Shown here piece after piece: positions 8,699 to 25,173 of a stretch of 64,000 bases of DNA (position 1 is its first letter; each line of letters starts with the position of its first letter). The stretch lies in IMG/VR virus record IMGVR_UViG_3300045988_184134; one strand, 5' to 3'. The notes beneath the pieces were generated by a model. The model saw only the letters and a list, made by a program, of their open reading frames with translations, did not search any database and was not told the DNA's origin. The stretch comes from a virus. The position numbers and the translations under genes are program-made.

Positions 8699-8899
8699 CT
8701 ACTCAACCTGAAGCACTGCCTGCATTGAGGTGTGCTGTTTCCGCTTTGCACGTGAAACGGCATGCTGCCTGACCGCCTGGCGGATGGCTGCGTTTGTGTG
8801 TTGGATGCTGGCGGTTTCCTCACGCGAAAAGTTTTTGTCCGTATTTCCTTGAAGATTAGACTCAGTTACAGCCTTTGCAAACTTAATAGATGTCGTCAT
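8699..8899 (-). CDS. small basic protein (66 aa)
   Basis: Internal ATG at 8899 preceded by GGAGG-CAGCT; trimmed from ORF-track 8699..8935. Confidence 0.3.
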   Translation of the reverse strand: MTTSIKFAKAVTESNLQGNTDKNFSREETASIQHTNAAIRQAVRQHAVSRAKRKQHTSMQAVLQVE

Positions 8900-9683
8900 A
8901 GCTGCCTCCGATTCCGGCCCAAAGAGCTTCATCACTCAAGTCGTTGCGAGGGCACTTGATAATGCCCGCTTCTCTTAAAATTTGTCTTGCTTCCTTTGGC
9001 GTTAAGCCGTATTGCTTGGCGAGATTCGATAGAGACTGATTTGGGATAGCTCTGGCTTGTGTAATCAATCGCCTTTTCTTTTCTGTCCAATCGATTGCTA
9101 AGCTCTTGTTTTTTGGAGCTGAGAGAGCGGTTCTTTCAAGGTCTTTTTCGAGGTCTTTTTGGTATTTTTTTGCGGCCGCCTGAATGCCGCTGACCGTCAT
9201 TCCCCATTTATCAGCAATCTTTTTATAAGACATGCCACTGATGTAGTCTTCATATATTTGTTTGTTTCTGGCGTGCTTTTCCTGAACATCTTTCTGGCGA
9301 TAGAGGCGCGTCTTCGCCAAACCTTCACGCTCTTTTTGATACTTTTTCACGATTGACCGAACGCAGCTACTGGTAACGCCCCATTTCTCCGCTATTTTGA
9401 TGCAAGACGCACCACTTATAAACTCTTCATAAATTTGCTTGTTTCTGGTATGTTTTGCCTGTGCATTTTTCTGCCAGTCAAGGCGTGTCTTCGTTAAACC
9501 ATATTTGGGGTCAGAACGTAGAATTTCGACAATTCTATAGCAAGAAAGGCTATATTTGTCCGCCAACTCCAAGACACATACACCATCCATATAATCTCTG
9601 TAAATGGCGTCATTGCGTTCTTTCAAAGATTCATAGACGCCGTTATTCTTTGCCTTCATCATAGTATCGCTGCTTCTCATCAC
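8883..9683 (-). CDS. transcription regulator with four tandem HTH repeats (sigma-70 region-4 / HTH_23-like)
   Basis: Repeated units YRDYMDGVCVLELADKYSLS / YEEFISGASCIKIAEKWGVTSS / YEDYISGMSYKKIADKWGMTVS / SLSNLAKQYGLTPKEARQIL. Confidence 0.55.
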   Translation of the reverse strand: MMRSSDTMMKAKNNGVYESLKERNDAIYRDYMDGVCVLELADKYSLSCYRIVEILRSDPKYGLTKTRLDWQKNAQAKHTRNKQIYEEFISGASCIKIAEKWGVTSSCVRSIVKKYQKEREGLAKTRLYRQKDVQEKHARNKQIYEDYISGMSYKKIADKWGMTVSGIQAAAKKYQKDLEKDLERTALSAPKNKSLAIDWTEKKRRLITQARAIPNQSLSNLAKQYGLTPKEARQILREAGIIKCPRNDLSDEALWAGIGGSYDDIY

Positions 9684-12508
9684 AGACCTCCAAACGAAAG
9701 TTGCTCGCCCGTTGTCTGAGGCTTTGCTTCACTCTTTTCTTTCTTCTTGGAACCAAAGCTGCCACCATTACGCCGCTTGTAGCCGTACCCCTTATGCGCA
9801 GCCTGGACGGATTTGTACCCATACCCGTTTGCATCATCCAGCACAGTGTTGGAATCCTCTTCCATGATGACATAGCGTACATCACCGGGTTTAGATAGCT
9901 TGGAGGAGCGAATAACTCGATATTCGGCCGGAAACGCTTCTTTTTCTTTCTTATACTGCTCTTCTCCGTCCTTCCACCAGCCGACAGGTTCAGAGTCATA
10001 CGTCTGACGCTCCGGCGGCAGACGCTTGTACTGGGAGAAGTCATAGGGTTCGGTTGCGGTTTCTTCTGCAACTTTGACATCCACACCCATGCTCTGCAAG
10101 CTGTTCAGCATTTGCTCGAAACTATCAGCCGGATTCAAAACCACCTGTTTCGAGGCTTGAGCCGGGCTGTACTGGGTAACAGGCTTTGGACGCTTCTTCT
10201 CGCGGACTTTCCAGACCTTGAGAAGCTGACGCTCATTGAAGTCGATGACCAAGCCGCAGTCTTTAAGCATCTTGCGAACCACATAAGTAGAGAAGTTCGA
10301 ATAACCCGAATAGGGGCCGACATGGTTCTCAATATCGACTGCCACGCAAGACATCTGATGTTCGAACTCTGCATGGTCATCAAGCCACTGTTCAATGACA
10401 TGGAGAAGTTCTTTCTTATTGACCGATTCTTCCGTAGCTTTCTTATTCTGTTTCACGTATGCTTCGCAGGCGGCCAGAATTGTGTCATAGCCGTTTACTG
10501 CCGTACCGCCCACGATAGAGCGAGTTCCCGCATCCAGGATGACATACTGCTCACCCTGCTTGATAATAGCAACACCTTCGTCCTGCGGCTTTTCCTCAAC
10601 AATGTTGCCGCCGGTATCAAATTCAGGCAGCGAAGTGTCGGACATAACACGGTCGAGAATCGTGTCAAGGCTCTGGGAGTAGTCTTTCTCCAGATTGTAG
10701 GCGAGAGCTTCCGTATAGACGCCCTTGGTGATGCACTTCACTACCGCATTCAGAAAAGCCGTGCGGTCCGGAATTTCGACTTCATACATCGTGTTATCCC
10801 GGATGTTCCAAAGAACGCCGGTAGGAAGGCCTGTGGCGAGCATATAGCAGGCGCACTGGATGAAGTGCTTGTGTGCGAGGTTTGATACGAACTTCAGATA
10901 ATAGACCTTGTTGTCCTTGACTACATCGGCCATACCGCTAACGATAAGCGATGTGACAGGCTGCTTCAGTTCATCCTGTTCTACCACAATGTTTAGTTCT
11001 GCGCGTTCCTGAACCTCTTCATCATGGGTAAACATCGTAGAGAGGCGGTCAGTCAGCGCTTTTGCCTGTTCCGGCGTGATGAAAGGCAGTTCAACCTGCT
11101 TGATGTAACGGTCCTGACTCGTCATCAGCATCGTCAGGAACAGGACTTTTTGCTCCACTGATTTCCAAGAGGTCGGGACCTTCGCCATCTTGTCCTTGTG
11201 TAGGTACATGAAGAAGGCGATGGCGCTGTCGATGTCGTAAAAATCGAAGAAGTTTGCCTGCTGGTAGATACCGATGCAGGGAGACAGGTCAATCATCGCA
11301 TCGGAGTGCTTGATTTCGATTTCCGTCTGGTCTTTCTGGAATACCTGCTTGGTTGTGATAAGGTTGTAGCACGCATCCACATCCTCATCAAACTTGAAAT
11401 CGAACATTTCACTGATGTCGAATTTGTCCTTAAAGGTGGTGCGAGTCTTGACAGGGGTCATCAGTGTCTTGTCACTCACGAGGCTACGCTTATCAGGCTT
11501 AACGAAGATGACTTCTTGCTTGCCACGGCTCGCAGCTACGCAAAAGAGGTTGCGCATGATTTCGTAGCGAGTCAGAGGCTGGCGCATACGGGTCGCCCAG
11601 TAATCCTCGGTAAAATCGAAGACCACGCAGATAGGACGTTCCATGCCCTTGCTGCCGTCGAATGTCGTGAAGATGCCCACATTGCTGTTCGGAGCTACGC
11701 TTTTTTCGCCGTCGTTGTCCTTGATGCTGGCATAAACATGTTTTTTGTCGTAAAGGTTATCGGGGCGCTCTTCCAAGGCATTCAAAACTGCGGCCATCTG
11801 GCCGGTACGAGCGCCAAGGCATAGGACGTTCTTCGGGTCCAAATCGTTGAGGTACTCGATGACCTCATCCTTCGTCATGGACTTGACTTTGCAGTTCTCG
11901 TTGACTCCGTTGATTTCCTTATTCCAGATAGTGCCAAGGCGCTCGGCCAAGTCGTGGGACAAGCGGAAGCATTGGGTAAAGTTGACCTGCGTGTGTTTGC
12001 CGAGGAACTTGTTGATGAAGTTCCAGATGTCCAAGGATGTGGTGTCGTAGATTTTCTGCGCCATATCCCCCACCGCAATAATTTGCATGGTGGGGTTTTC
12101 TTCCTTGATATATTCAAGCATTCGAGAGATTTCTTCGTTAATATCTTGGTACTCATCGATGATGAGCACGTCATAGCGACCGACCGGAACATGCAAATCG
12201 AGCGCCTTCTTAATTTGCTCGCCCTGTCCAATATTACGAACTCCGTGCCGATAGAGGAGTTTTGAAGCAAAGCCGTGGTAGTTCTGGACGACAACATTGT
12301 CGTTTAGGATTTTTTCTTGCGCGTCGAGTTTTAGCAGACGGTTATAGGTCAGGTACAGAATCTGTTTGGAGGCGTCAAACTCGTTACACAACACGTTGAT
12401 GGTCGATGTTTTACCGCTGCCGATGCAAGCGTCACAGAGTATATTTCTGCCTGCGAGAGCCAGGCGTACAAGGTCCTGTTGCTCAGTAGACAGGTTAGCG
12501 AGAGTCAT
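9680..12508 (-). CDS. UvrD/PcrA-like superfamily-1 DNA helicase (942 aa) with long C-terminal extension
   Basis: Motif I GSGKTS, motif II IIDEYQD, FTTFDGSKGME, motif VI VAASRGKQEV; preceded by leader/terminator module copy 6. Confidence 0.8.
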   Translation of the reverse strand: MTLANLSTEQQDLVRLALAGRNILCDACIGSGKTSTINVLCNEFDASKQILYLTYNRLLKLDAQEKILNDNVVVQNYHGFASKLLYRHGVRNIGQGEQIKKALDLHVPVGRYDVLIIDEYQDINEEISRMLEYIKEENPTMQIIAVGDMAQKIYDTTSLDIWNFINKFLGKHTQVNFTQCFRLSHDLAERLGTIWNKEINGVNENCKVKSMTKDEVIEYLNDLDPKNVLCLGARTGQMAAVLNALEERPDNLYDKKHVYASIKDNDGEKSVAPNSNVGIFTTFDGSKGMERPICVVFDFTEDYWATRMRQPLTRYEIMRNLFCVAASRGKQEVIFVKPDKRSLVSDKTLMTPVKTRTTFKDKFDISEMFDFKFDEDVDACYNLITTKQVFQKDQTEIEIKHSDAMIDLSPCIGIYQQANFFDFYDIDSAIAFFMYLHKDKMAKVPTSWKSVEQKVLFLTMLMTSQDRYIKQVELPFITPEQAKALTDRLSTMFTHDEEVQERAELNIVVEQDELKQPVTSLIVSGMADVVKDNKVYYLKFVSNLAHKHFIQCACYMLATGLPTGVLWNIRDNTMYEVEIPDRTAFLNAVVKCITKGVYTEALAYNLEKDYSQSLDTILDRVMSDTSLPEFDTGGNIVEEKPQDEGVAIIKQGEQYVILDAGTRSIVGGTAVNGYDTILAACEAYVKQNKKATEESVNKKELLHVIEQWLDDHAEFEHQMSCVAVDIENHVGPYSGYSNFSTYVVRKMLKDCGLVIDFNERQLLKVWKVREKKRPKPVTQYSPAQASKQVVLNPADSFEQMLNSLQSMGVDVKVAEETATEPYDFSQYKRLPPERQTYDSEPVGWWKDGEEQYKKEKEAFPAEYRVIRSSKLSKPGDVRYVIMEEDSNTVLDDANGYGYKSVQAAHKGYGYKRRNGGSFGSKKKEKSEAKPQTTGEQLSFGGL

Positions 12509-12540
12509 GGTTTGAATCCTCCAGAATACGTATTAACGCA

Positions 12541-12634
12541 AAAAGAATACCCCGGCAGGCACGCATGGTGTTCCGCCGGGGTACAATTATTTATCTTACA
12601 ATATCAATTGTAGGCAATTCGCACAGATGGTCAA
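12541..12634 (-). promoter_or_regulatory. module copy 6, short form (TTGACC-N16-TACAAT promoter, then terminator, then RBS of the helicase)
   Basis: TGTGCGAATTG spacer motif; hairpin TACCCCGGCGG…CCGCCGGGGTA plus UUCUUUUU. Confidence 0.5.
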
Positions 12635-12914
12635 GCGCTTTTTATCGTATTTTGTTTTGAGTTTTGCGAGCACAAAAACAACGTCCACCCGTGATTTACG
12701 GATGGACGTTCAATCTTACGCAGCTACATGTGCTGCTACGATGCTTTCGGACGACATGTAGTCGATACCGTCCTCGTTTCAATCTTACGCAGTCACACGG
12801 GCTGCTACGGCAAAATTACATAACAAAGAATTTTGCATATATTCAGCATTGTATATTCTGCCACTATTGGTTCTACGTTATTTTTGTTTGCTATCACCGC
12901 ATCTCTTTGCGGTT

Positions 12915-13922
12915 TTACATAATTCGATGCAGATAGGATTTGTTGATTTCTACGAGCAACTCCTCGATTTTCGCAAAATCGGGTTTTGCCGGGAGTTCCG
13001 TTTTCTTCACGTCACGCTGGAATTTCGTTTCGAGCTGGTCCACAGACTCGAAGAATTCGGGTGCATACGACCCATCCTCACGCATATACTTGCCGTTGCG
13101 GATAGCCAGCAGTTCTTCGTGCTCCTTGTCCCGGCGGGTGATGATGCGTCCTTGCTCCAGAATGTCAAATGCTGTGTAATACAGTCTCACAAGGTGCATG
13201 GCGTGCTTATTGATATGGGCAGCATCCTTTTGCGCTTTCGGATGCTGCGGCTGTTCATACTGGTCGATAGTCGTTGTCAGACCTCGAAGCAGGGACTTGA
13301 GAGAGTTGACAGGATAGTTACTCAGATTTCCAGAAATCAAGAGAGGATGTTTGCCTTCAGAATCGACATCTTCACTGATGCTGATTTTGAAAACGTCATC
13401 TTTCCCTTGGCCTGCAACCAGGCGTTCAAGACTTCTCTTCTCAAACTTGTTTTTGAGTGCTTCCGGTGAAGTGCCATTACGAAGGAGACCCATCTGCAAG
13501 CGTCTGAGCTGGTCGTTTGCAAAGCCACCATAGCTATAGGCAACGCGCCGAGTCAGAAAAAGCTCCTTATTATCGAGCAGCATCTGTCCTTCAGAGGTCA
13601 TATTCACATACAGCTCCGGGTCGTTGCCAAGAAGCTCGATGACATTAGGATTGCATTGGACAAGCAAGTTTACGAACTTATTGATAACGTAGATAACTGT
13701 GTCTGTCTGATTATTGATAACTTGCTCAAAGCGGTTAAATCCCAAGATTTCAGGCGAACCGGCCGCACCACGGATGTCAACATCCGAGCCCTCGATATTC
13801 GTGCCGTAGGCGTGGCTGCCTCCGACGGTCAAAAACAGGATATTGTCTCCCAGATGCTTGATGGTACGTAAAAAATCGTATTCTTCGCGCTGGAGGATTG
13901 CTTTCAATTCTTCGTTGGTCAC
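12915..13922 (-). CDS. Pol-beta-superfamily nucleotidyltransferase with helical C-terminal domain
   Basis: GGSHAYGTNIEGSDVDIRG, the [GS]x9-SDxD NTase signature, followed by a third acidic position in TDTVIYV. Confidence 0.55.
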   Translation of the reverse strand: MTNEELKAILQREEYDFLRTIKHLGDNILFLTVGGSHAYGTNIEGSDVDIRGAAGSPEILGFNRFEQVINNQTDTVIYVINKFVNLLVQCNPNVIELLGNDPELYVNMTSEGQMLLDNKELFLTRRVAYSYGGFANDQLRRLQMGLLRNGTSPEALKNKFEKRSLERLVAGQGKDDVFKISISEDVDSEGKHPLLISGNLSNYPVNSLKSLLRGLTTTIDQYEQPQHPKAQKDAAHINKHAMHLVRLYYTAFDILEQGRIITRRDKEHEELLAIRNGKYMREDGSYAPEFFESVDQLETKFQRDVKKTELPAKPDFAKIEELLVEINKSYLHRIM

Positions 13923-13942
13923 TAAATCACTTCCTTACTACT

Positions 13943-14362
13943 TTATGTCAGCGCGGTGCATTCGGATTCAACCCGAATCAACTTTTCAGTCCGCCAATCA
14001 TATTCCAGCACGTCTTTGGCAACCACTGTGCTTCCCTCGATATATTCCAGAATTTGCCGCACACGCATGGGACGTTTCGCATCCTGTGCTATCCGTAGCG
14101 CTGCATCTCTGTACTCAACTGTGTATGCAGGCTCGTAGGTTACATACGGGCAGCCATCGGGTTGTGTCTGACGACTCAGCTCAAAGCGCGACCGGACGTA
14201 GCCGTTGTGCAGGGCATTACGGATGGCGCAAGCACTTTTTCTTTCGCCACTCTGTTCAAAGGTTTGTGCAATTTCCTCCACACACCGACAAAAATGCGTG
14301 GCATCTTGGCTGTGTTTTGCGAAAATCAGTTTTCGAATCAGCAGTGCTTCATCTTGACTCAC
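13943..14362 (-). CDS. hypothetical protein (139 aa)
   Basis: Intact ORF in operon arrangement downstream of the NTase. Confidence 0.45.
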   Translation of the reverse strand: MSQDEALLIRKLIFAKHSQDATHFCRCVEEIAQTFEQSGERKSACAIRNALHNGYVRSRFELSRQTQPDGCPYVTYEPAYTVEYRDAALRIAQDAKRPMRVRQILEYIEGSTVVAKDVLEYDWRTEKLIRVESECTALT

Positions 14363-14374
14363 GGCTCTCTCCTT

Positions 14375-14710
14375 TCACTTCTTCGTCGAGACCAAGAAGA
14401 CTCTTTTGGAGAAAGTTCCCTTCTCTGCTGCCTTCTGGCTTCTGACCTGTTCCACTTCCCTCTTAGAGACAGCGCAAGTCTTGCCCATAGCGTACAGAAC
14501 CTCCATGACGTCTGATATTTCCTCTGCAAAGTCCAGAACGCTCCGTTGCTTGGCGGTGTAGGCTTCCAGCAGTTCGGCAACCTCTTCTTTCAGTTTCTCA
14601 GCCAGAGCATCTTCGTACTCCTTATCAGACAGCTTACGGGTCACGCAGGTTTCTCCGTTTTTCTCAATAATAGCCGGGATATTATCCCGAACCAGCTTTT
14701 GAAACATCAT
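14375..14710 (-). CDS. MazG/HisE-like all-alpha NTP pyrophosphohydrolase
   Basis: KLVRDNIPAIIEKNG…EEVAELLEA…DFAEEISDVMEVLYAMG pattern. Start trimmed to the internal ATG so the gene abuts the upstream stop. Confidence 0.55.
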   Translation of the reverse strand: MMFQKLVRDNIPAIIEKNGETCVTRKLSDKEYEDALAEKLKEEVAELLEAYTAKQRSVLDFAEEISDVMEVLYAMGKTCAVSKREVEQVRSQKAAEKGTFSKRVFLVSTKK

Positions 14711-14714
14711 AGTT

Positions 14715-15131
14715 TTATCTTTCCTCCAGTTTACAGCGCCGCAGCGGTATGCGCAGCTCATGACAGGTGTATGCGGTTTCTCGTTCATCATCGGTTCCTT
14801 CAAAGACTACACAGCCTTTCTGCTGTTGCTTGGAAAGGTATGCGGGTAAATCATCGTTTGTGACAGATACAAATAGGTATCCACGCTCACTGGCGTACAT
14901 CGCAGCCAAGGCCGCAATCTTCTGCCCTGATTCTGCTACAATGACAACCTTATCTCGTTTTGCCAGCATCTTGTCGAGATACTCAGCTACCTGTTGGCGG
15001 TGCTTCCCCATCGCTTGCTGCGTGGCAGTAACACCACAAAAGAACCAATCCTTTTCGCAGATTCTGGCATCGCATTCCTTGCACTGAAGGTGGACCACGT
15101 TGCCATCTGTATAGGGGCAATAGCTGCTCAT
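14715..15131 (-). CDS. Cys-rich hypothetical protein (138 aa)
   Basis: C-x-x-C pairs CPYTDG…CKEC and ICEKDWFFC. Confidence 0.45.
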   Translation of the reverse strand: MSSYCPYTDGNVVHLQCKECDARICEKDWFFCGVTATQQAMGKHRQQVAEYLDKMLAKRDKVVIVAESGQKIAALAAMYASERGYLFVSVTNDDLPAYLSKQQQKGCVVFEGTDDERETAYTCHELRIPLRRCKLEER

Positions 15132-15390
15132 TTAACACCATCACACCTTTTGACACAATTTATTTACTACCTATATTTTCTCATAAGCAAGAAGAAATTG
15201 CGATTGTATGTTCTATTTGTTTACGGATTGTACATATTCCGGTTTGCCGCAAAAAGAAACACCCAAGCACCTGTTAAAGTGATAGGGTGTTCTCAATCTT
15301 ACGCAGCACGAAGCTGCTTCATTTTTATCTTGGCAGACGGTAACGTGTCGGTCTTCATTAGTGACGTTTTAATCTTATACTCGTTTCTTT

Positions 15391-15603
15391 TTACACTTTT
15401 TTGAAGTATTTCTCGACATATTCATCCGGCAGCTCCATGCGCATCTTATCCGGTCCAGTGAATTCCTTGAAGCTATATTGCCCGCCGCACCATACCAGAT
15501 GCCAGATGTTCCTGCGTTTGACACGGTATGGCTTCTTTTTGCCATCTGGACCATCATACCATAGTGTCAGCGGCTTGACGCATTTGTAATTTGTGTTATA
15601 CAT
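15391..15603 (-). CDS. small protein (70 aa)
   Basis: AAGGAG-CGAT-ATG RBS at the internal Met; the longer ORF-track version 15391..15897 overlaps the macro gene and is rejected. Confidence 0.45.
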   Translation of the reverse strand: MYNTNYKCVKPLTLWYDGPDGKKKPYRVKRRNIWHLVWCGGQYSFKEFTGPDKMRMELPDEYVEKYFKKV

Positions 15604-15652
15604 ATCGCTCCTTGTTTTTGTTGGTGGATTCTCCAACCCGTATTCATTTGTC

Positions 15653-16132
15653 TTATCTCTTATTCGGCGACAAAACCCAAATCTCCACATTAGCGTTCCA
15701 CGCCTCAGCAGCTTCAGCAATGAGAGAAAAGACAGTGTCCCAATCACCGCCCGCCAGGCCGCAGCCGATGCTGCTCGGAATACGGATAGTTGCTTCCGGC
15801 GCAATTCTCGAACAATCTCGCATAAACGTAAACAATGCCGTTGCAAAGGCCGCATAGTTCGTCTGGCGTTCACCAATTCCATAGTTGTTTTGCCCAAACA
15901 GGTTCACCACATGAATGTTTGGCTCAACCTGGACTTTCTGGTAACTGCCAAGGAACTCCTTCCATGCCGGAATTTCCATATATTGCTGATACACAACGGG
16001 CCACTTACGGCGAATTTTGAGAGCAAGCCCCGCGCCCATCACGCCTCGACAATTCACCTGTTGACAGATGTAGACATCCTTGTTAGTAGGAAGATTCGTC
16101 AGGATGTCGCCGGAGATAATCTTGATGCTCAT
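15653..16132 (-). CDS. macro-domain protein (ADP-ribose binding / ADP-ribosylhydrolase-like)
   Basis: IISGDILT…DVYICQQVNCRGVMGAGLALKI fits the macro-domain N-terminal glycine-rich signature. Confidence 0.7.
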   Translation of the reverse strand: MSIKIISGDILTNLPTNKDVYICQQVNCRGVMGAGLALKIRRKWPVVYQQYMEIPAWKEFLGSYQKVQVEPNIHVVNLFGQNNYGIGERQTNYAAFATALFTFMRDCSRIAPEATIRIPSSIGCGLAGGDWDTVFSLIAEAAEAWNANVEIWVLSPNKR

Positions 16133-16136
16133 GTCC

Positions 16137-16736
16137 TCACTCCTTTATGACGGTATAGTTGCCCGTGGCAAAGCCCAGCAGCTTGTTGTAAAGTTCCGCA
16201 GCAATTTCAATGAATGTCTCGCTGCAAGGGCTTATCCTGTGCAGGAATCGCTTGTCTTGCTGCATAGACGATGCCATGTTAAAGGCAATGGCAAGAACCT
16301 TTTTCTGCATACGGCCGAAAGTCACGCCTCTCATTTCCACACTGTCAGGCGTCGCTGCCCACACGGATGCCTGTACTGTAATGGCCCACAGGTCCGCATC
16401 CCAGAATCGAGCGTTTTCGTTGCCCATCAAAGGCCGCATAATGCGCCAGGCGTTCGCATAGCTTTTGCCTTCGACATTATCAATGGCAGGGCCAAAGAAA
16501 CCGTCGGTTTTGTTGCTGAGTTCAATGAGACGCTCAGCCATCTTGGTGGCAGCGTAGGCCAGAGACTTGGCATCGGTGTCGTTCATTTCGATAGTCAGCT
16601 CTTCCCCATCGGGCTTGATGTACTTATACTTGTTCTCACCGATGGCTGCACTCTCCCACAGGATGCAGGGCAGTTCCTTCAGCACGGTCTTGCTTGCACC
16701 AGCCTTCGCTTTTTCAATATAACTGCTGTTTGACAT
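16137..16736 (-). CDS. hypothetical protein (199 aa) translationally coupled to the macro gene
   Basis: Stop is 4 nt from the macro start codon. Confidence 0.5.
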   Translation of the reverse strand: MSNSSYIEKAKAGASKTVLKELPCILWESAAIGENKYKYIKPDGEELTIEMNDTDAKSLAYAATKMAERLIELSNKTDGFFGPAIDNVEGKSYANAWRIMRPLMGNENARFWDADLWAITVQASVWAATPDSVEMRGVTFGRMQKKVLAIAFNMASSMQQDKRFLHRISPCSETFIEIAAELYNKLLGFATGNYTVIKE

Positions 16737-16774
16737 GTTGTGTTCCTCTCAGCTCAAATGACAGATGCTTTGAC

Positions 16775-17173
16775 TCAGTTCAGCTTGTTTCCCGGATAGA
16801 GCGCATAGTCATTGCGGGATGCACGCTCCTCGCTATGTATCAGCATTACGTTTGCCATGCTGGTGTAGTAGTCCTTGTCTCCGCTCATCGTGTCTTCGAC
16901 CTCAAATTTGATGTTCAGACCACCATCGATAATCTCGTACTTTACGAGCTTGGCTATGACCCACTGATTATTATGCCGGTAGTAGATGTAATCATAGTCC
17001 GTCTCTGCTGATTCTGCCGTACTGGGCTCGGCTGTTTCACTCGTAGCAAACAGCTGTGACGGAATGTCCTTCAGTTCTTCCAGCGTCTGGTCTGCTACTT
17101 CACCGCAGCCCTCGAAGGCTACTGCAACGACCAAAATCACGCACACGACCAGTGCTTTCTTTGCAAATCGCAT
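16775..17173 (-). CDS. lipoprotein (about 132 aa)
   Basis: MRFAKKALVVCVILVVAVAFEGCG signal peptide and lipobox; start trimmed to this Met. Confidence 0.45.
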   Translation of the reverse strand: MRFAKKALVVCVILVVAVAFEGCGEVADQTLEELKDIPSQLFATSETAEPSTAESAETDYDYIYYRHNNQWVIAKLVKYEIIDGGLNIKFEVEDTMSGDKDYYTSMANVMLIHSEERASRNDYALYPGNKLN

Positions 17174-17499
17174 AATCTGTTTCAAGTGAATCACCACCAT
17201 TTTTGTGGATGCAATGTGCTTTTTTCCTTCTTTATTTATAATTTTACCTGTAAAAACAGAAAAACACAACGATAGTAGCTTGTTTTTAATTTTCTGTACA
17301 CATTTTGAAAGAAAGTCTTTGCCATCGAATAGAAAAGAAAAGACCCGCCTGTTAGCAGCAGGCAGGCCGTTCTCGCAGTGAGCGTTTTAGGTCCGCTCAA
17401 GACCCTATTCGTCTCTACCGAAGCAACACTATCAGCGCCGTTCAGTATCTATTAGTATACGGTGGTCGCATATCGTGTCAACTGGATATCGCGGCAATG

Positions 17500-17545
17500 C
17501 AACAGAAAAAGGAGCCTCGCCCGTTTTTGCAGGTAAGACTCCTCG
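17500..17545 (-). terminator. terminator of paralogue cassette 17556..17876
   Basis: Hairpin plus U5; a near-identical sister terminator lies at 18010..18060. Confidence 0.45.
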
Positions 17546-17555
17546 TTCGTTTGGC

Positions 17556-17876
17556 TTAGCCTTCGATATCGAAAGTGTAGCCCTTCACGGTCATAGTGAC
17601 CAGGCCGCTGCAAGACTTGCACTTTACGCCGTCCAGGCTGACATCGAGAGTCAGGCTGGAATCTTCGTTGTCCAGCCAGCTGGGCCGCATGTAGGCAGCG
17701 AGGTCGTGCAGCGCACCGATGACGTAAGCAACCAGGTCCTCATCATCCAGAGTCTGAGCAATCACGTCGTTTTCCTTGTCAGCGGGAAAGCCGATGGAAG
17801 CGGTGATGCTGTCAAGGGTGTTGTCGCCCTTGGAACGGAAAGCGGTGGCGCTGAACTCAATCAGGTTGGTACTCAT
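17556..17876 (-). CDS. hypothetical protein (106 aa), paralogue of 18065..18385
   Basis: Shares FSATAFRS…WLDNEDSSLTLD… with the neighbouring cassette; has its own promoter and terminator. Confidence 0.5.
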   Translation of the reverse strand: MSTNLIEFSATAFRSKGDNTLDSITASIGFPADKENDVIAQTLDDEDLVAYVIGALHDLAAYMRPSWLDNEDSSLTLDVSLDGVKCKSCSGLVTMTVKGYTFDIEG

Positions 17877-17919
17877 AATGGTATTCTCCTTTGTATTTCT
17901 TATTATTTCCTATGGTACT

Positions 17920-17955
17920 TTTATTGTATTCAGTTCGCATATTGCGTCAACTATC
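17920..17955 (-). promoter_or_regulatory. promoter TTGACG-N16-TACAAT (spacer ATGCGAACTG) for 17556..17876
   Basis: Sequence match. Confidence 0.5.
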
Positions 17956-17958
17956 GCA

Positions 17959-18012
17959 CCTATGGTTCGTTGCAGCTACGCTCCCTCCCCTGTTCTTGGC
18001 TGCAGCTACGCA
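17959..18012 (+). repeat. two or three further RGCTACGSY copies, 30 nt apart
   Basis: agctacgct at 17974 and agctacgca at 18004, plus variant acctatggt at 17959; in the spacer between the paralogue cassettes. Confidence 0.45.
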
Positions 18013-18060
18013 ACAAAAAAGGCCTCACCTGTTTTTGGCAGGTAAGGCTCCTAACTGGCT
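18010..18060 (-). terminator. terminator of paralogue cassette 18065..18385
   Basis: GCCTTACCTG-CCAAAAA-CAGGTGAGGC plus U6. Confidence 0.5.
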
Positions 18061-18064
18061 TCGT

Positions 18065-18385
18065 TTAGTCTTCGAAATTGAAGGTGAAGCCACTTTCTTT
18101 CATAGCGACAAGGCCGCCGCGCGTCTGACATTTGTTTCTATCGAGAAAGGTTTCAAGCGTCAGGCTGGTGTCCTCATTGTCCAGCCATTTGGGGCGCAGG
18201 TCGCTGATAAGGTTGTACAGTGCTGCGACAGCATGGACAATCAGTTTCTCTTCGCCCAGCATGTTTCCAATCACTTCGTCGTCGTTCTCCACAGGGACGC
18301 TGATGGAAGCCGAGAGACTTTCGAGGTTGTTGTTGTCATCGTTGCGGAATGCGGTAGCTTCGAATTTGAGAGTACAAGTGTTCAT
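18065..18385 (-). CDS. hypothetical protein (106 aa), paralogue of 17556..17876
   Basis: AAAGGAGAA RBS before the internal Met MNTCTLKFEATAF; similar terminator to the sister cassette. Confidence 0.5.
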   Translation of the reverse strand: MNTCTLKFEATAFRNDDNNNLESLSASISVPVENDDEVIGNMLGEEKLIVHAVAALYNLISDLRPKWLDNEDTSLTLETFLDRNKCQTRGGLVAMKESGFTFNFED

Positions 18386-18435
18386 TTTTGATGTTCTCCT
18401 TTGTATGTTATTTGGTTTTCCTTGCACTTTAAATT

Positions 18436-18470
18436 GTACGCAGTTCGCAAGGGTAGTCAATCGGTCCAAT
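18436..18470 (-). promoter_or_regulatory. promoter TTGACT-N16-TACAAT (spacer TTGCGAACTG) for 18065..18385
   Basis: Sequence match. Confidence 0.5.
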
Positions 18471-18551
18471 AGCGCAGAATCCGGCTGGGTCGGATTTTGC
18501 AAAAAAAAATTTTGCGCAGTTAATTTTTCCTTTTACATATTTTTTATAAAT

Positions 18552-19403
18552 TTAGTCTTTAATGGCGTAGTATATATTTACTTCGTTATTTCGGCAAACA
18601 GTTTTGACATTTGTTATACTTTTGGATTTATTGAGCCTGAAAGTATCACATATTGCTATGTTTTGCCTTTTACATACCTTTTCTAAATTGATTGTATTAA
18701 AATACAGTACCTTTTCGTTCGAAGTTCCCCATGTATCGTGCATAACCAAAAAAACGTCTTCAATTCCACTAGACGCAGCTTCTCTTAGAACTGAAATAAA
18801 ATCTTTTGTAATTGGAAAATGATTATGGTCCACTATTTTACGTTTGTCGTTGTTGACTTCCCATTCTGCTGAGCATGGAATTGTTAACTCAATTAAGAAG
18901 CAGATTTTATTAGGGGCGCAACCAATCCTTTCGCAATATGAATTCACTTTTCGAAGGTGCTTTCCAATGATTCTCTCGAATTGTTTGATAAACTCATCAT
19001 AGTCGAAAGCATTAACGCTTTGCACATCGTCCAATGCCACTTTGAATAGAGCTTCGGGTGCATCTCCTTCATTTCCTTCCAAATTGTTATGGTACTGATT
19101 ATAGGTTTCTTTCCCCTTTTCTTCTTGTAGCTTTGAAGAAATCCTGATTGCGCCGTCGTTGGAGTAAATAAGACCGATTGCGAAATGCTCTATGCCACCC
19201 ATTGCCATTTTTGTTTTTGGCTCGACTATTGTAAAATCGAGCGGCAAACATGAAGCGCCGGGAACGACATCATAGCTTCCATTATTGGTTATTTTTGCAA
19301 GTGCCGATTTTACAGCTGGTGTTTGATTATCCTTCTTCAGAACAATGTTTAAACAATCGCTTTCTGCTTTATATTGCGATTCCGGACCATTGACGTCTAC
19401 CAT
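18552..19403 (-). CDS. hypothetical protein (283 aa) in AT-rich island
   Basis: Visibly lower GC than surrounding DNA. Confidence 0.45.
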   Translation of the reverse strand: MVDVNGPESQYKAESDCLNIVLKKDNQTPAVKSALAKITNNGSYDVVPGASCLPLDFTIVEPKTKMAMGGIEHFAIGLIYSNDGAIRISSKLQEEKGKETYNQYHNNLEGNEGDAPEALFKVALDDVQSVNAFDYDEFIKQFERIIGKHLRKVNSYCERIGCAPNKICFLIELTIPCSAEWEVNNDKRKIVDHNHFPITKDFISVLREAASSGIEDVFLVMHDTWGTSNEKVLYFNTINLEKVCKRQNIAICDTFRLNKSKSITNVKTVCRNNEVNIYYAIKD

Positions 19404-19521
19404 AGTGGCTCCTTTCTACAAAACAAAAAGGCCTCCCACCGCAGTCAGTATGATACTGATTACGATAGGAGGCTGTGAACCTGTTGCTATGTCTGTATTA
19501 TATCATGATTTGCGTTGCGAT

Positions 19522-20967
19522 TCAACCGCCAACCAAAAAGGCGCTGTCCAGCCTGGCAATGCTCTCCATCTCTTCTCGCAACTCCCTGTTTGCCTCCGCA
19601 TCCCCTACCATATCTCTCAGCACCACAAACAAAGCTCTCACCACAATGCAAGAGCCATGATAACGCCCAACGCGCTGGTGCTTTTCAGAGTCGCAACTGT
19701 CATGCAGTATCGGTGCTTGCCTAAATGCAATAGCTGCGTTAAGCGCCATTGCAATGGGCGCTCCGATGGTAAACTCGCCATCTGAGACCAATGCAAGCTT
19801 TGCAAGCCAGATATAGGAGCGGAAAATAAAGAGTATCTCCTCAAGGGATAGAAGGCTCCAGTCGGGGATGGAGTCGTTTCCTTGGATGGCGACAATGGCT
19901 TTCTTGAAGCCATCCTTCGCCTGCTGATACTTCCTTTCGACCGCATCCAGCCATGCAATTTGAAACATAGCCTTGTAGTAGGTACTATCCAGATGTAGAG
20001 CTTTCTGGAAGCATTGCAAGGCCCTCTCGCTATCCGCGTACATCTGCTTTTCAGACAGGCCGTATTTCAGGAATATCTCAGCTGTAAAAGGCATCGTCTC
20101 TTTGGAGGCATGCTCTATAGCATCACGCAGGTACGGTCGCGCATCAAGAGCGAACTGTGGTTGCCCTTCGCACAGTGCGGCGGCCAGGTGGTACATGGAT
20201 ATGAAGTCTGGCTCGACGCGGTGGATTTTGTTCAGTTCCGAAAGTAGTTTCTCTACCGGCTCAAGGACCGAGAGTAGTCTTATCCTCAACGGAGAGTAAG
20301 TCTCCAACGCGGCCGTAAGCTCTCTTAGATGTCTCTGCGCGTTCACATAAGCGTACACGGAATAGACGCTCTGAGGCCCTATTCGGCATTGCTTTTCCAG
20401 CTCAATGAAAGAATCTGCCATCTCGTTGAGGTAGCCGTCATCTGGCAACTTGTAATCACTTCTTGGGTTAAGAGCTTTTAGTTCGCTCATTTTCAGAGCC
20501 TGAAACGTACTCTTGATTTGCAAGTGCGCGAACATGTCAAACCGCCAGAAGGTCTCATTGATGTGCTGGAGACTCGCTACTGCCATCGCATCTTCTCGCC
20601 AAACGTGACGAATGATGTCATTAAGCGCTTCCTTCTCAAACCGCATCACAGAGGAACGGCCTTGTATAGCATCAGCACCATTGATAATCAGTTTCTGTTC
20701 CTTGATGCTGAAAACGCACCACAATTCATTCTCAGCCGGTTCTGAATCACCGGGATAGCAGTCAGTGAGAAACAGATACGCTGTCTGTTTATTCTCAGGA
20801 TGCGCCAATATCTTATGTTGCTTTGACATGTCTTCGGCCGACATCCTGGTTGTTCTGACCAGGCAGCCAACGAAGGTAAAGAATGTTCTCAAGACTTCTT
20901 TTTCTGCTCCGGCTTGCGGTTCGTAGCAAATCTTGATAGCCATAATTGGCTTGATTGCATTGCTCAT
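19522..20967 (-). CDS. TPR-like repeat protein (481 aa)
   Basis: Helical repeat segments such as YYKAMFQIAWLDAVERKYQQAKDGFKKAI. Confidence 0.5.
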   Translation of the reverse strand: MSNAIKPIMAIKICYEPQAGAEKEVLRTFFTFVGCLVRTTRMSAEDMSKQHKILAHPENKQTAYLFLTDCYPGDSEPAENELWCVFSIKEQKLIINGADAIQGRSSVMRFEKEALNDIIRHVWREDAMAVASLQHINETFWRFDMFAHLQIKSTFQALKMSELKALNPRSDYKLPDDGYLNEMADSFIELEKQCRIGPQSVYSVYAYVNAQRHLRELTAALETYSPLRIRLLSVLEPVEKLLSELNKIHRVEPDFISMYHLAAALCEGQPQFALDARPYLRDAIEHASKETMPFTAEIFLKYGLSEKQMYADSERALQCFQKALHLDSTYYKAMFQIAWLDAVERKYQQAKDGFKKAIVAIQGNDSIPDWSLLSLEEILFIFRSYIWLAKLALVSDGEFTIGAPIAMALNAAIAFRQAPILHDSCDSEKHQRVGRYHGSCIVVRALFVVLRDMVGDAEANRELREEMESIARLDSAFLVGG

Positions 20968-21029
20968 GATTGCTTTTTATAACAAGAAACGCACGCGTGC
21001 GTTCAAAATCACATGCGTGCGTTTTAAGA

Positions 21030-21647
21030 TTATTTCGTTTCTTTCTTCGGATAGACACCGCTCGTTGTAGCCGTAAACAGCTTTTGGAAGATTGCTACAG
21101 CTACCAGGCAGAACCTCTCTGATTTTGTTCTTCCTTCTACTTGCAGGCAGCCGCTTTCCTGAATTTGTAGCAGCGCCTTATAGATGGCTCCATAGATGGT
21201 CTTTCGGAGGTCTGCATCTTCTTTGAGTACAACCACGATGTCTTTCGATGCCCAGGTGCAGACGCACATGAGTTCTGAAAACTTTTCGTCTTCTCCTTCA
21301 AAGGCCAGCTTCCCGCCGGGTGCGAAAGCTGCAAGTGCCAGTTTGTAAAGCTCCTCGTCATCTTTTGGCGTTTCGAGTTTGTCAGACTCTTTTGTGGCAT
21401 CCCATACTTTAAGGATGCCGTCAGCATATTTTGCCGACATGAAAGCAAGTCTGGTTCGCGTAAAATCGTTTGCCTTTACACGCTGCTCAGTTTCGGGATT
21501 GTAACAGGTCGTACTATCTACAATGTACTGCTGCTTCATCGTCGTCTCGATAGCTCGAACTGCAGGCATCAGACTTTTTGTATAGCTTTCAAGGGCTTGA
21601 AAGCCTTTATCCCCTTCGCTATTGCGATTCTTGTAATTGCACTTCAT
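21030..21647 (-). CDS. hypothetical protein (205 aa)
   Basis: Intact ORF in operon spacing. Confidence 0.45.
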   Translation of the reverse strand: MKCNYKNRNSEGDKGFQALESYTKSLMPAVRAIETTMKQQYIVDSTTCYNPETEQRVKANDFTRTRLAFMSAKYADGILKVWDATKESDKLETPKDDEELYKLALAAFAPGGKLAFEGEDEKFSELMCVCTWASKDIVVVLKEDADLRKTIYGAIYKALLQIQESGCLQVEGRTKSERFCLVAVAIFQKLFTATTSGVYPKKETK

Positions 21648-21658
21648 AGATGACTCCG

Positions 21659-22270
21659 TTACGCAATAGAATTAACCATATCCAGCTCCATACAGAAAAG
21701 TACGAAGGCCAGGTTGGTGATTTTATCGGCATCTGTATCGAGATGCCTGCCGAGTTCCTTGACCGCGCCGCCGTCCTTGAGGCTCTTGGCCGCCTGGTAG
21801 ATGAGCATGTAGGTGTTGACGTAGATAGCCTGCTGTTTCACGCGGTCCTTGGTAATGTGCTCCGGCATGCAATCCTCTGACAGCGACTTAATGAGCGGAT
21901 ACCAGCAGGAAAGGTACAAAGCACCATCCTCATCGTTCATCGCCTGCTGAATCTTGACCTGATACTTCGGGTAGTTGCCATTCACGACCTCAATGAACTC
22001 GGTATCTTTGAACTCATCGCGGTGGCAGTGAAGCCACAGGATAGCGTTGGCAAGGTCCATGCAGATAAGCGCCAGCTTTTCGGCTTTGGAATCATCCAGC
22101 TGAACCGTATCGAAGCTGTCAGCATCGATGTCATACTGCTTGTAAATGTTCACCAGCTTGTAGCTGTTCTCCCCTGCGCGTACCTTCTTCTTGATGAAGT
22201 CGGTAAAGTCGTGCGCCAAGGCCTCATAGGCTTTCTGCTGCTCTTCGGCAATCGTATTCTGTTCGCTCAT
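21659..22270 (-). CDS. hypothetical protein (203 aa), paralogue of 23498..24109
   Basis: Start trimmed to the Met with AAAGGAGAA-CTCAAC-ATG. Shares YKLVNIY and EDCMP…KSLK.GG…DADKI.NLAF with the paralogue. Confidence 0.5.
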   Translation of the reverse strand: MSEQNTIAEEQQKAYEALAHDFTDFIKKKVRAGENSYKLVNIYKQYDIDADSFDTVQLDDSKAEKLALICMDLANAILWLHCHRDEFKDTEFIEVVNGNYPKYQVKIQQAMNDEDGALYLSCWYPLIKSLSEDCMPEHITKDRVKQQAIYVNTYMLIYQAAKSLKDGGAVKELGRHLDTDADKITNLAFVLFCMELDMVNSIA

Positions 22271-22284
22271 GTTGAGTTCTCCTT

Positions 22285-22728
22285 TTATCTTAATTTGGTC
22301 CTGATTTCTTCGAGCATCATGCCCAGTTTGTTCTGACCGTGAACGCCCTTGCATCTGGGACACTGGCAGTCGCCCCAATAGTTATCGTGCCAGCCTGTCG
22401 TGTCCTCAATAATGTGCCGGTCGCCTGTAGCGAGCAGTCGCTGTTTGAACTCTTCGTTCTGGTTGAACTTGGCATACAGCACCCGGCGCATCGCTTCGTC
22501 TCGAACTTTGTCCCAATCTGGAGAAAGTTGGACCCGGCGGCCGAGTCGCTTAGCCTCGTTCGGCATGAGACAGGCAAACTGGCGTCTTTCCTCCGGCGGG
22601 ACCTTTTGTGCCTGGAACGCTGCCTCCGCGTTGAGGTAGTAGATTCCATCTAGCACAAAGGAGCAAGGATAATAATTGCTCAGAAACCCGTAGGTCGGGT
22701 CGTCTTTCTTAAACCGCAGCAGATTCAA
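22285..22728 (-). CDS. NADAR-domain protein (YbiA-like N-glycosidase / ADP-ribose processing)
   Basis: YGFLSNYYPCSFVLDGIYYLNAEAAFQAQK…EAKRLGRRV…DWDKVRDEAMRRVLYAKFNQNEEFKQRLLATGDRHIIEDTT matches the NADAR signature. TTG start with GGAGGG RBS, overlapping the upstream stop. Confidence 0.65.
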   Translation of the reverse strand: MNLLRFKKDDPTYGFLSNYYPCSFVLDGIYYLNAEAAFQAQKVPPEERRQFACLMPNEAKRLGRRVQLSPDWDKVRDEAMRRVLYAKFNQNEEFKQRLLATGDRHIIEDTTGWHDNYWGDCQCPRCKGVHGQNKLGMMLEEIRTKLR

Positions 22729-23371
22729 TGTGCATTCCCTCCATAACCCCGGCGGGCGTATCTTTGAGAACCTTGTAGCGCATCGTCGTGGCACCAAGCA
22801 GACCGTTGAAGACGGTCACGGCGGTATGCACGAACAGAGGGTTCTGCAAGGTCATCTTGCCGTTTGTATCCCACTGGCCTTTGAGTTCAGCGGCCGCATC
22901 GTACACAACCATCATCATGGCTTCATACATGTCGGACATCAGCTGTCGGTCGTACTTCTTCAAAGCATAGTAGCTTGGTAGGTTGTAAACGCGGCCGAGG
23001 AGCGGCTCGTCATACAAGGGCGAACCTTTCGCAACCATCGTATTGTAGACTTTGGGCCAGGCAGCTTCTTTCGGCTTGCCGGTGGTTGCCTGCATCTCGA
23101 TGTTCTTGAAACCAGCCGTCATGTTGTACAGCACCATGAGCCGCTCGGCAAGCAAGACGGAAGATTCAGCCAGGTGCTTTGCTTCCTCATTGGTCATCGC
23201 AACCTGCATGGCCGTGCTGTCCGAGTCGTTGCCATAATAGAAATACTGCTTGCGCCCGGCGGCAGCTTTCTGTACGAGCTTCTTTGCCAGCTGGCTTTCG
23301 ATGTAATTGTAGATGTCGTTTTCCAACTCACAGGTGATGTGCGTTGCGGTATAATGGATATTTTTGTTCAT
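22709..23371 (-). CDS. hypothetical protein (220 aa) co-transcribed with NADAR
   Basis: Stop overlaps the NADAR start; preceded by leader/terminator module copy 7. Confidence 0.5.
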   Translation of the reverse strand: MNKNIHYTATHITCELENDIYNYIESQLAKKLVQKAAAGRKQYFYYGNDSDSTAMQVAMTNEEAKHLAESSVLLAERLMVLYNMTAGFKNIEMQATTGKPKEAAWPKVYNTMVAKGSPLYDEPLLGRVYNLPSYYALKKYDRQLMSDMYEAMMMVVYDAAAELKGQWDTNGKMTLQNPLFVHTAVTVFNGLLGATTMRYKVLKDTPAGVMEGMHIESAAV

Positions 23372-23403
23372 TGGTTTACCTCTTTGTGTATAATAAAAAG
23401 AAA

Positions 23404-23490
23404 GAGCGGTCGAGCCGCTCTCCTCAAAACACTTATTTAGCTTACAATTTTCATTCTATGCAATTCGCACAGACACGCAAGGCAAAATGG
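23404..23490 (-). promoter_or_regulatory. module copy 7, short form (TTGCGT-N16-TAGAAT promoter, then terminator, then RBS of 22709..23371)
   Basis: TGTGCGAATTG spacer motif; hairpin GAGAGCGGCTCGACCGCTCTTTC plus U5. Confidence 0.5.
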
Positions 23491-23497
23491 CGACGCC

Positions 23498-24109
23498 TCA
23501 CGGATTCATCTCGTAGGCAATCAGTGCATCGTTGAAATACTTGAAAGCAAGATTTCCGATTTTATCTGCGTCTTTCGGCAGCTTGTCCACCATGCGTTTG
23601 ATGGAACCACCTGTCTTGAGAGACTTCATTGCCAGGTGAACATTCCAGTACATGTTGGTGTATACCAGCTGCCACTTCTTTTTGTCTCCAACATAGGCAT
23701 CCGGCATACAGTCTTCTGCCACAAGGCGAATAAGCATGTCCCACGCATCCAGGTAGAGAGGACTTGTATCATCGTTCAGCTTATGGATGATTTGCTTCAG
23801 ATAGGAAGTGTAGTCTTCCCCACTGATGTCAACAAGCTCGATGTCTGCGAACTTGTCGCGGAAGTAATACAGCCAAAGCGTTGCTTTCGCAAGGTCACAG
23901 CTGGCCGCAGCAAGCAGCTGAGCTTTCTGGTCCTGCAAAGTCACAATCTTGGCATCAGGGTCATCCAAGCCCTTCTCACCATAGAGATTGACCAGCTTGT
24001 ACTGGTCTTTGCCGACTCTATCCTCTCTGCGGATAAACTCTTTGAAGTCTTCCACGAAGGCAATGTATGCCTGGACCTGTGGGTCGTTTTTCGGGTTGAA
24101 CTCACTCAT
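23498..24109 (-). CDS. hypothetical protein (203 aa), paralogue of 21659..22270
   Basis: AAAGGAGAAGCGCAC-ATG; promoter with CGTTCGAATTG spacer at 24133..24165. Confidence 0.5.
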   Translation of the reverse strand: MSEFNPKNDPQVQAYIAFVEDFKEFIRREDRVGKDQYKLVNLYGEKGLDDPDAKIVTLQDQKAQLLAAASCDLAKATLWLYYFRDKFADIELVDISGEDYTSYLKQIIHKLNDDTSPLYLDAWDMLIRLVAEDCMPDAYVGDKKKWQLVYTNMYWNVHLAMKSLKTGGSIKRMVDKLPKDADKIGNLAFKYFNDALIAYEMNP

Positions 24110-24132
24110 GTGCGCTTCTCCTTTACTTTAGT

Positions 24133-24165
24133 CTACCTACAATGATACTCAATTCGAACGGATGA
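24133..24165 (-). promoter_or_regulatory. promoter TTGTTC-N17-TATCAT (spacer CGTTCGAATTG) for 23498..24109
   Basis: Sequence match. Confidence 0.4.
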
Positions 24166-24299
24166 ACAAGGAACCTTACGACATGTACATGGTTTCTTTA
24201 GAAATTGTTATCACGCTTTTAATAAACAGCGTCAAATCTCGCATTTTTGTATTCCATGTGTTATAAATGCAAGTAGAAAAGAAGGATGAGGCGTTTTTT

Positions 24300-24734: not shown

Positions 24735-24736
24735 AA

Positions 24737-24795
24737 TAAAAAAGAAGGCTGCCACACCGGAGTTTGAGGTAACAGCCTATTTTTATTTTGCTCGG
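24737..24795. terminator. bidirectional intrinsic terminator between convergent genes
   Basis: Hairpin AGGCTGCC…CAGCCT with A-run on one side and T-run on the other. Confidence 0.5.
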
Positions 24796-24980: not shown

Positions 24981-25173
24981 TGATTGTCTCCTTCCTGCCA
25001 CCATACTTTGCAAGTACGATTGCAACTGCGTCTTTCATGGTTGTGGCTTCTCCTTCGATTTCGCCATCACTCCGAATTAGGCGGCCATTGATGAACCAGT
25101 AGGATACATTATTGGAAGCAAAGATGACCGTACCATTGATACGAAGGCTGACGCCTGATTTCGTTTCAATCAT
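24973..25173 (-). CDS. small protein (66 aa), tandem paralogue
   Basis: MIETKSGVSLRINGTVIFASNNVSYWFINGRLI; paralogue of 24783..24980. Confidence 0.4.
   Translation of the reverse strand: MIETKSGVSLRINGTVIFASNNVSYWFINGRLIRSDGEIEGEATTMKDAVAIVLAKYGGRKETING

Follow-up and report, generated by a model that had tools for sequence, protein, structure and literature searches.

Paralogous helical proteins paired with macro-domain and NADAR genes in a large gut phage: candidate two-component erasers of DNA ADP-ribosylation

Several phage proteins are known to counter DarT toxins. AdfM (PhiKZ gp104), a stand-alone phage macrodomain, defeats DarTG and acts against DarT2 (PMC13309987), and orphan phage NADARs of the AdfN type (e.g. 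T4 30.3) reverse guanosine ADP-ribosylation by DarT1 and defeat DarTG1 (PMC11825919). Others, AdfB (ICP1 Gp145) and AdfA, are non-enzymatic and neutralise DarT by binding it directly. The related eraser SCO6735 cleaves thymidine-linked ADP-ribose off DNA and rescues cells from DarT (PMC9411070). AdfM and AdfN have been described only recently, and as single orphan enzymes. Here we describe two gene pairs in a 64,000-nucleotide stretch of viral DNA (IMG/VR record IMGVR_UViG_3300045988_184134; the whole stretch is referred to as the window). In one pair a stand-alone macro-domain gene directly follows a gene that we call partnerA; in the other, a NADAR gene directly follows partnerB, a paralogue of partnerA. 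The new element is thus a paired, paralogous partner family that is coupled to two unrelated erasers. A preliminary description of the partnerA-macro pair, which proposed either an anti-ADP-ribosylation counter-defence function or a DarTG-like module, missed the most informative fact about it, namely that a partner paralogue is coupled in like manner to a NADAR gene 6 kb away.

Two gene pairs and their products

PartnerA (16137..16736, minus strand) encodes a 199-aa protein of a new, lineage-specific alpha-helical family and starts at an ATG behind GAGAGGA. Between its TGA stop and the ATG of the macro gene (15653..16132, minus strand) stands GGAC, a spacing of exactly 4 nt; the Shine-Dalgarno sequence of the macro gene, AAGGAG, sits within the last codons of partnerA. 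The macro gene encodes a stand-alone macro domain of 159 aa that is a predicted ADP-ribosyl (DNA) glycohydrolase. Re-reading of the sequence bore out the four open reading frames (ORFs) that the preliminary description had assigned to this unit, together with their coordinates, their minus-strand orientation and the 4-nt spacing.

The second pair lies about 6 kb from the first. PartnerB (22709..23371, minus strand; 220 aa) has its own ribosome-binding site (RBS), a terminator-like hairpin upstream of it and, directly downstream, the gene for a NADAR-domain protein of 147 aa (22285..22728, minus strand), which begins with a TTG (22728) behind GGAGGG. The end of partnerB overlaps the NADAR start by 20 nt, and the overlap is identical in three related loci (L001, L009 and L068). 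PartnerB is recognisably a paralogue of partnerA (BLASTP, 24% identity over 177 aa, E=1e-11). It is 91% identical to its orthologue P0026, with a ratio of nonsynonymous to synonymous substitution rates (dN/dS) of 0.08. The NADAR protein matches Pfam PF08719 at 1.7e-28, with a score of 100.4 bits (cut-off 35.1) that spans positions 2-163 of the 163 in the model, and is also a weak match to the T4 Gp30.3 model. In a syntenic contig the NADAR gene lies a few kb upstream, and again a distant family member, P0026, stands directly upstream of NADAR. Since macro and NADAR genes both occur in the window, one phage encodes both known classes of DNA ADP-ribose eraser. The alternation of macro and NADAR across the two cassettes mirrors that between DarTG2 and DarTG1.

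Two more distant members of the partner superfamily flank the second pair: p203a (23498..24109, minus strand; 203 aa), a remote paralogue upstream of partnerB, and p203b (21659..22270, minus strand; 203 aa), a paralogue of p203a (42% identity) directly downstream of the NADAR gene. The relationship of p203a to the partner profile has an hhalign E of 2.8e-5. Comparison of the p203 family profile with the partner profile gives Prob 93.2% and E 2.9e-7 over 179 colinear columns, and the hidden Markov model (HMM) matches are reciprocal. At least four copies of this superfamily therefore stand within 8 kb of the window. A fifth candidate, p205 (21030..21647), was rejected as not significant (hhalign E 0.18, HMM E 0.15-1).

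The preliminary description spoke of a clear macro-domain signature in 15653..16132. The signature is real, but Pfam PF01661 falls short of it, scoring 14.6 bits against a cut-off of 22. The protein belongs to phrog_335 in PHROGs (7.6e-35) and matches the solved macrodomains 5e3b (SCO6735; 2.1e-14, residues 7-141), 2fg1 (BT1257; 1.3e-10) and 5m3i (Thermus DarG; 1e-5). It also matches the DarG models of NCBIfam (2e-12) and PADLOC (8.5e-14), in their macro part only (the first 149 positions). On these profile matches, we consider the macro-domain assignment secure despite the sub-threshold Pfam score. Asn27, Gln81 (in the context NLFGQNN) and the loop G123-CGLAGG-129 are invariant in 37 distinct orthologues (56-97% identity), and in an alignment they fall on Asn27, Gln85 and the Gly-rich loop of SCO6735. 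SCO6735 depends on exactly these residues; its Gln85, which replaces the catalytic Lys of DarG and TARG1, is essential (PMC9411070). The residues shared with SCO6735 and the best structural matches thus place the macro protein in the SCO6735/BT1257 branch of the ALC1-like (DarG/TARG1) class. Judged by this class membership, it most likely erases ADP-ribose from DNA, like AdfM.

The macro protein is not itself a DarG: its score of 46.9 bits falls short of the equivalog cut-off of NF048014 (250), and its match covers only model positions 1-149 of 338. The chain ends after the macro domain (159 aa), without a C-terminal DarT-binding domain, and has Gln81 instead of Lys80. No DarT toxin gene (DUF4433, ADP-ribosyltransferase (ART) fold) was found adjacent to the macro gene. 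Taken alone, the macro gene is nothing unusual in a large phage and adds one more member to an already known type: same-class macro genes without a partner homologue are present in 684 other phage records. No counterpart of the partner was found beside the macro genes of Geobacillus virus E3 or of one human-gut phage contig. In Geobacillus virus E3 the position upstream of the macro gene is occupied by a gene for an ORF6N-domain protein, and in the gut contig small unrelated ORFs lie upstream and a gene resembling phosphoribosyl pyrophosphate (PRPP) synthetase lies downstream. The closest deposited homologue of the macro protein (L071, 2998..4289, MT835492.1), which is 41% identical and comes from an unrelated human-gut phage, overlaps a PRPP-synthetase-like gene. 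That pair may belong to a salvage pathway for nicotinamide adenine dinucleotide (NAD) and ADP-ribose.

PartnerA and its relatives have no match in Pfam, PHROGs, NCBIfam, PADLOC or the sequences of the PDB, and tblastn of partnerA against 50,697 phage records returned no match. Close homologues number 13 among 5.8 billion clustered proteins. A full HMMER scan of 1.8 billion proteins found 23 representatives and a profile search found 73 matches, all of them metagenomic. Although narrow, and confined to one clade of large human-gut phages, the family is abundant: in human-gut metagenomes some of its 90%-identity clusters exceed 1,000 member sequences. Comparison with a 93%-identical orthologue yields a dN/dS of 0.17 for partnerA, a value that indicates purifying selection; given this ratio and the roughly 70 homologues, we regard partnerA as a real coding sequence.

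We modelled partnerA with AlphaFold (AF2) from a 47-sequence alignment; the six close homologues alone gave a predicted local distance difference test score (pLDDT) of 35. The best model (pLDDT 91.3, predicted TM-score 0.89) is a helical bundle. Seven helices are accompanied by a small sheet of three strands and by a long, ordered loop, which bears the family signature LxNKTxGFxGPxI....GK. Structure searches with this model found no meaningful neighbour, and the fold is not that of an ART. The preliminary description had found no recognisable fold in this protein, and neither sequence libraries nor structure searches have supplied one. It had suggested looking for DarT/ART, NADAR and DUF4433 folds, none of which was detected by sequence: model searches of all 47 family members gave no match to DarT, DUF4433 or any ART, and the partner gave no signal for NADAR or DarG. 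On the sequence and structure searches we reject identification of the partner as a DarT or other ART, a DarG C-terminal domain, a NADAR or a sponge-like protein. The invariant residues of the partner family are mostly hydrophobic or Gly, together with N75 and T77, and none is kept in the p203 relatives. Because the predicted fold is helical, no catalytic-type residue is conserved across the superfamily and the charge is near neutral, we propose that the partner is non-catalytic. As far as the sequence searches and the model can tell, partnerA is neither an ADP-ribosyltransferase nor any other known type of enzyme.

Proposed function and competing explanations

Our leading explanation, which we hold tentatively, is that the window carries two counter-defence cassettes whose erasers strip DarT-type ADP-ribose from phage DNA, each with a co-translated, non-catalytic helper. 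The same plan would be used twice, with an alpha-helical partner of about 200 aa followed directly by an ADP-ribose eraser. The macro protein would act on thymidine-linked ADP-ribose on DNA, as for DarT2 and AdfM, and the NADAR protein on guanosine-linked ADP-ribose on DNA, as for DarT1 and AdfN. With the host's DarT tags removed, phage replication could proceed. The helper might tether the eraser to its substrate or to the site of replication, stabilise it, or bind the toxin. In the last case the pair would amount to a split version of DarG, a protein that has eraser activity and DarT binding together in one chain. We infer the substrates, the counter-defence role and an interaction between partner and eraser, whether physical or functional, by analogy. 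The counter-defence function raised in the preliminary description gains support from the SCO6735-branch class of the macro protein, from its setting in a phage genome and from the precedents of AdfM and AdfN. T4 AdfN is reported to be fully functional only in T-even infections, and a need for an additional phage protein has been suggested (PMC11825919). A role for the partner as an eraser helper is plausible because T4 AdfN seems to need another phage factor.

Conservation of the gene arrangement is consistent with a shared function. Of 62 related loci, 58 have a partnerA-macro junction of 2, -4 or 4 nt, and this spacing is kept even where identity has fallen to about 35% for partnerA and about 57% for the macro protein. 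Wherever partnerA is intact, an eraser lies downstream of it. There are four variants without a macro gene (P0013, P0021, L060 and L068), and in all of them partnerA is lost or truncated. P0013 and P0021 encode chimeras of the partner N-terminus with RlaP or with a 139-aa protein, the macro gene being deleted; in L060 (4001..5275) partner residues 1-108 are fused to a Cas7-like ORF; and in L068 (7001..7762) p203b runs directly into the helicase. Joint loss fits a functional unit and, in principle, also a toxin-antidote pair, and there are only four such events. The chimeric ORFs of P0013, P0021, P0113, L060 and L068 mark independent deletions or replacements in these related contigs, each of which sets in within partnerA (at residues ~80-115) or within p203b and removes the macro gene. 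The region is an accessory island that is often rearranged.

Other observations weigh against an eraser-helper role. The approximately 60 partnerA-macro loci all come from one syntenic clade of large human-gut phages, and they are therefore not independent observations. In L012 (5001..6095; P0074; also P0069 and P0033) a C5 cytosine methylase domain is joined to the C-terminal two-thirds of the partner, and in both L012 and L013 the macro gene is kept behind the methylase-partner fusion, overlapping its stop. In L007 the distance between partnerA and the macro gene is 1095 nt, with a mini array of clustered regularly interspaced short palindromic repeats (CRISPR) and a foreign, AT-rich NADAR gene inserted between them; tight coupling is thus not obligatory. 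The macro gene has a strong Shine-Dalgarno sequence of its own. Members of the p203 type adjoin unrelated genes elsewhere (L066 and L067, where DUF6557 is next or the member stands alone), so eraser adjacency is not general to the whole superfamily. The four remaining AF2 models of partnerA are far less confident than the best one (pLDDT 73, 73, 60 and 40), and its isoelectric point (pI) of about 6 is a clear fit neither to a DNA mimic nor to a DNA binder.

Alternatively, the neighbours may have no shared job. The partner would then be a multi-copy, fast-evolving accessory family with a different role, perhaps in host takeover or in some other form of anti-defence, and the macro and NADAR genes would be morons acquired independently in an accessory island. 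This is a serious contender, although we judge it rather unlikely. The four partner-family paralogues of the window, of which three surround the NADAR gene, would suit such a family, as would the p203-type members that stand beside DUF6557 or alone. The insertion at the L007 junction, the separate RBS of the macro gene and the 684 phage records with same-class macro genes but no partner homologue would be expected of independent genes, and the deletions (P0013, P0021 and L068), the Cas7 fusion (L060) and the methylase fusion (L012) identify a hot spot of rearrangement. However, two different erasers each stand directly behind a member of the same subfamily, which is unlikely to arise by chance among the roughly 90 genes of the window. 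Junctions of -4 to +4 nt have been kept despite strong divergence of both proteins, the 20-nt overlap of partnerB and NADAR is conserved, and intact partnerA does not occur without an eraser.

A bolder form of the eraser-helper explanation, which we consider unlikely at present, would make the partner family a new eraser-associated class of anti-DarT proteins. Each paralogue would form a complex with its own hydrolase (macro or NADAR) and add toxin binding or targeting to modified single-stranded DNA. With such a partner an orphan eraser would be turned into a complete, split mimic of an antitoxin, and the partners may be the sort of extra protein suspected for T4 AdfN.

Another possibility is that the erasers act on small ADP-ribose derivatives, either Thoeris-like immune signals or ADP-ribose 1''-phosphate (Appr-1-p), or on by-products of RNA repair, and so quench signalling or clean up metabolites. 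Iyer et al. argue for a role in RNA repair or small ADP-ribose derivatives for phage Macro and NADAR proteins in general; phrog_335 carries the label 'phosphatase' (Appr-1-p processing); and a MazG-like pyrophosphohydrolase and an RlaP 'RNA repair' nucleotidyltransferase are encoded nearby. Yet the closest characterised relatives of the macro protein, SCO6735, DarG and TARG1, work on macromolecular ADP-ribose, SCO6735 on thymidine-ADP-ribose DNA. All phage NADARs tested to date reverse the guanosine modification made by DarT1, and the ORFs that were scanned include neither a Tpt1/KptA nor an RNA ligase. We therefore regard small-molecule substrates as improbable.

A DarTG-like module, in which the partner is a novel-fold toxin or writer and the macro or NADAR protein its antidote, so that two phage-borne pairs mirror DarT2-macro and DarT1-NADAR, would account for the gene order (a ~200-aa protein first, an overlapping eraser second), for the macro/NADAR alternation and for the asymmetry that intact partnerA never lacks a downstream eraser while a macro gene may follow a truncated partner, but this part of the preliminary description, with its toxin-like ART, is very improbable given that none of the 47 members matches a DarT, DUF4433 or ART model, the partner model is a helical bundle, no catalytic-type residue is conserved (the invariant positions being largely hydrophobic or Gly, plus N75 and T77, and none of them kept in p203 relatives), and neither p203a nor p203b has an eraser of its own beside it.

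Genomic setting

The partnerA-macro pair lies within a four-gene unit. Its first gene (16775..17173, minus strand; start at 17173 or 17200) encodes an acidic protein that is lipoprotein-like or membrane-anchored. When checked for a lipobox ([LVI][ASTVI][GAS]C), this protein shows a hydrophobic N-terminus and then, in most homologues, a conserved AFEGC, whose Phe (position -3) and Glu (position -2) are unusual for a lipobox. The gene is about 2 kb from partnerA in L014-L017 and L062, and its adjacency is not constant. The last gene (15391..15603, minus strand) has its own AAGGAG RBS and encodes a basic protein of 70 aa (pI 9.5) with no family match in Pfam, PHROGs, NCBIfam or PADLOC; it comes after the macro gene in nearly all related loci. 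Upstream, a terminator-like hairpin with a T-run (17342..17368, minus strand) closes the preceding unit. Downstream, a hairpin followed by UUUCUUUUU, a U-run (15251..15290, minus strand), is the likely terminator of the four genes, a weak call; we treat the boundary at ~15290..15251 as tentative because the hairpin folds little better than shuffled sequences (z = -1.5). Bracketed in this way by terminator-like hairpins, the lipoprotein-like and 70-aa genes do complete the unit as first proposed. An Rfam scan of 12000..25000 detected no RNA family.

Just upstream of the unit are two paralogous small genes (17556..17876 and 18065..18502, minus strand) for proteins of 106 and 145 aa without a family match, each with a terminator-like hairpin behind it. 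Downstream, a set of accessory genes (12915..15131, minus strand) is syntenic with the macro gene across relatives. It encodes a 138-aa Cys-rich protein, a MazG/PRA-PH-like pyrophosphohydrolase (~111 aa, within 14375..14803), a 139-aa protein without assignment and a 335-aa RlaP-family nucleotidyltransferase (12915..13922). These genes look like a nucleotide- or NAD-related accessory island.

Among the related contigs, L012 has two more methylase genes upstream of its fusion. The L007 array consists of a three-copy, 34-nt type I-C-like repeat (6699..6947), and the same contig carries the type I-C cas genes Csd1 and Cas7 (1..1627). On the opposite strand, just past the macro-containing block, L004 (8967..10921) and L067 (3421..5375) encode RloB and an AAA_15/AAA_21 ATPase, a pair that looks like a defence system.

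The genes of the window, about 90 in number, lie nearly all on the minus strand, and library matches among its ORFs include a DNA polymerase, a UvrD-like helicase, tail proteins, a Mor-like activator and a sortase. The best matches of the DNA polymerase are Oscillospiraceae, Evtepia and Clostridium phages from human faeces. Fifty-one IMG/VR viral contigs of 33-389 kb contain relatives of the genes of the unit, as does one gut 'Clostridiales' metagenome-assembled genome; a nucleotide search with 12800..19500 returned no match among the 50,697 deposited phage records. From the strand bias, the phage-gene matches, the polymerase relatives and the viral contigs, we conclude that the window comes from a large phage, as yet uncultured, of human-gut Clostridia. 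Elsewhere in the window are the sortase and the Mor-family transcription activator, with several helix-turn-helix matches (5223..5996 and 8883..9683, minus strand), two adjoining calcineurin-like metallophosphoesterase genes for proteins of 280 and 262 aa (46454..48081, minus strand), and a gene for a DUF6557 protein (48141..48899); in L067 a DUF6557 gene comes after a member of the p203 family.

Comparison with described systems

The macro protein of the window shares with SCO6735 and BT1257 its single-domain size, Asn27, a Gln in place of the catalytic Lys of DarG and TARG1, and the GCGLAGG diphosphate loop. Like SCO6735, it is an orphan eraser without a cognate DarT. Unlike SCO6735, it is phage-encoded and has a coupled upstream partner gene, and its activity is predicted. 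Lys89, which helps SCO6735 bind DNA, is a Gly in the window protein, and position 25, which has a backbone role only, is Gln and not Val.

AdfM is likewise a stand-alone phage protein of ~160 aa, and the window macro protein is predicted to remove DarT2 ADP-ribose as AdfM does. The two have in common the N-terminal motif ...VN..GVMGAGLA..., with 43% identity over 51 aa (E=7e-8) that is confined to the first third of the protein. AdfM differs in that it keeps the DarG-type FPTK Lys motif where the window protein has FGQ, is imported into the phage nucleus, and has no described partner gene. AdfN and DarG1 find their parallel in the NADAR protein of the second cassette. Unlike AdfN, for which no such partner has been described, this NADAR gene is translationally overlapped with that of a partner-family protein. 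The presence of both eraser types in this clade suggests exposure to thymidine- and guanosine-directed DarT systems in gut Firmicutes.

For the partner, AdfB provides one precedent by analogy: direct binding of DarT without enzymatic motifs is among the roles that we propose, although AdfB has 77 aa and the partner about 200. The partner family itself is previously undescribed, with a fold that has no detectable relatives, and it is abundant in the human gut. If the partners prove to be functional subunits, then counter-defence erasers can be two-component, and the partners would be a concrete candidate explanation for the dependence of some erasers, T4 AdfN among them, on the context of their own phage. 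Compared with DarG, the antitoxin of DarTG2, the macro protein of the window has no adjacent DarT, and its partner is a separate, upstream chain without a sequence match to DarG. The macro part is nonetheless alike, and the proposed combination of an eraser with a non-catalytic protein would reproduce in two chains the hydrolysis and DarT binding of DarG.

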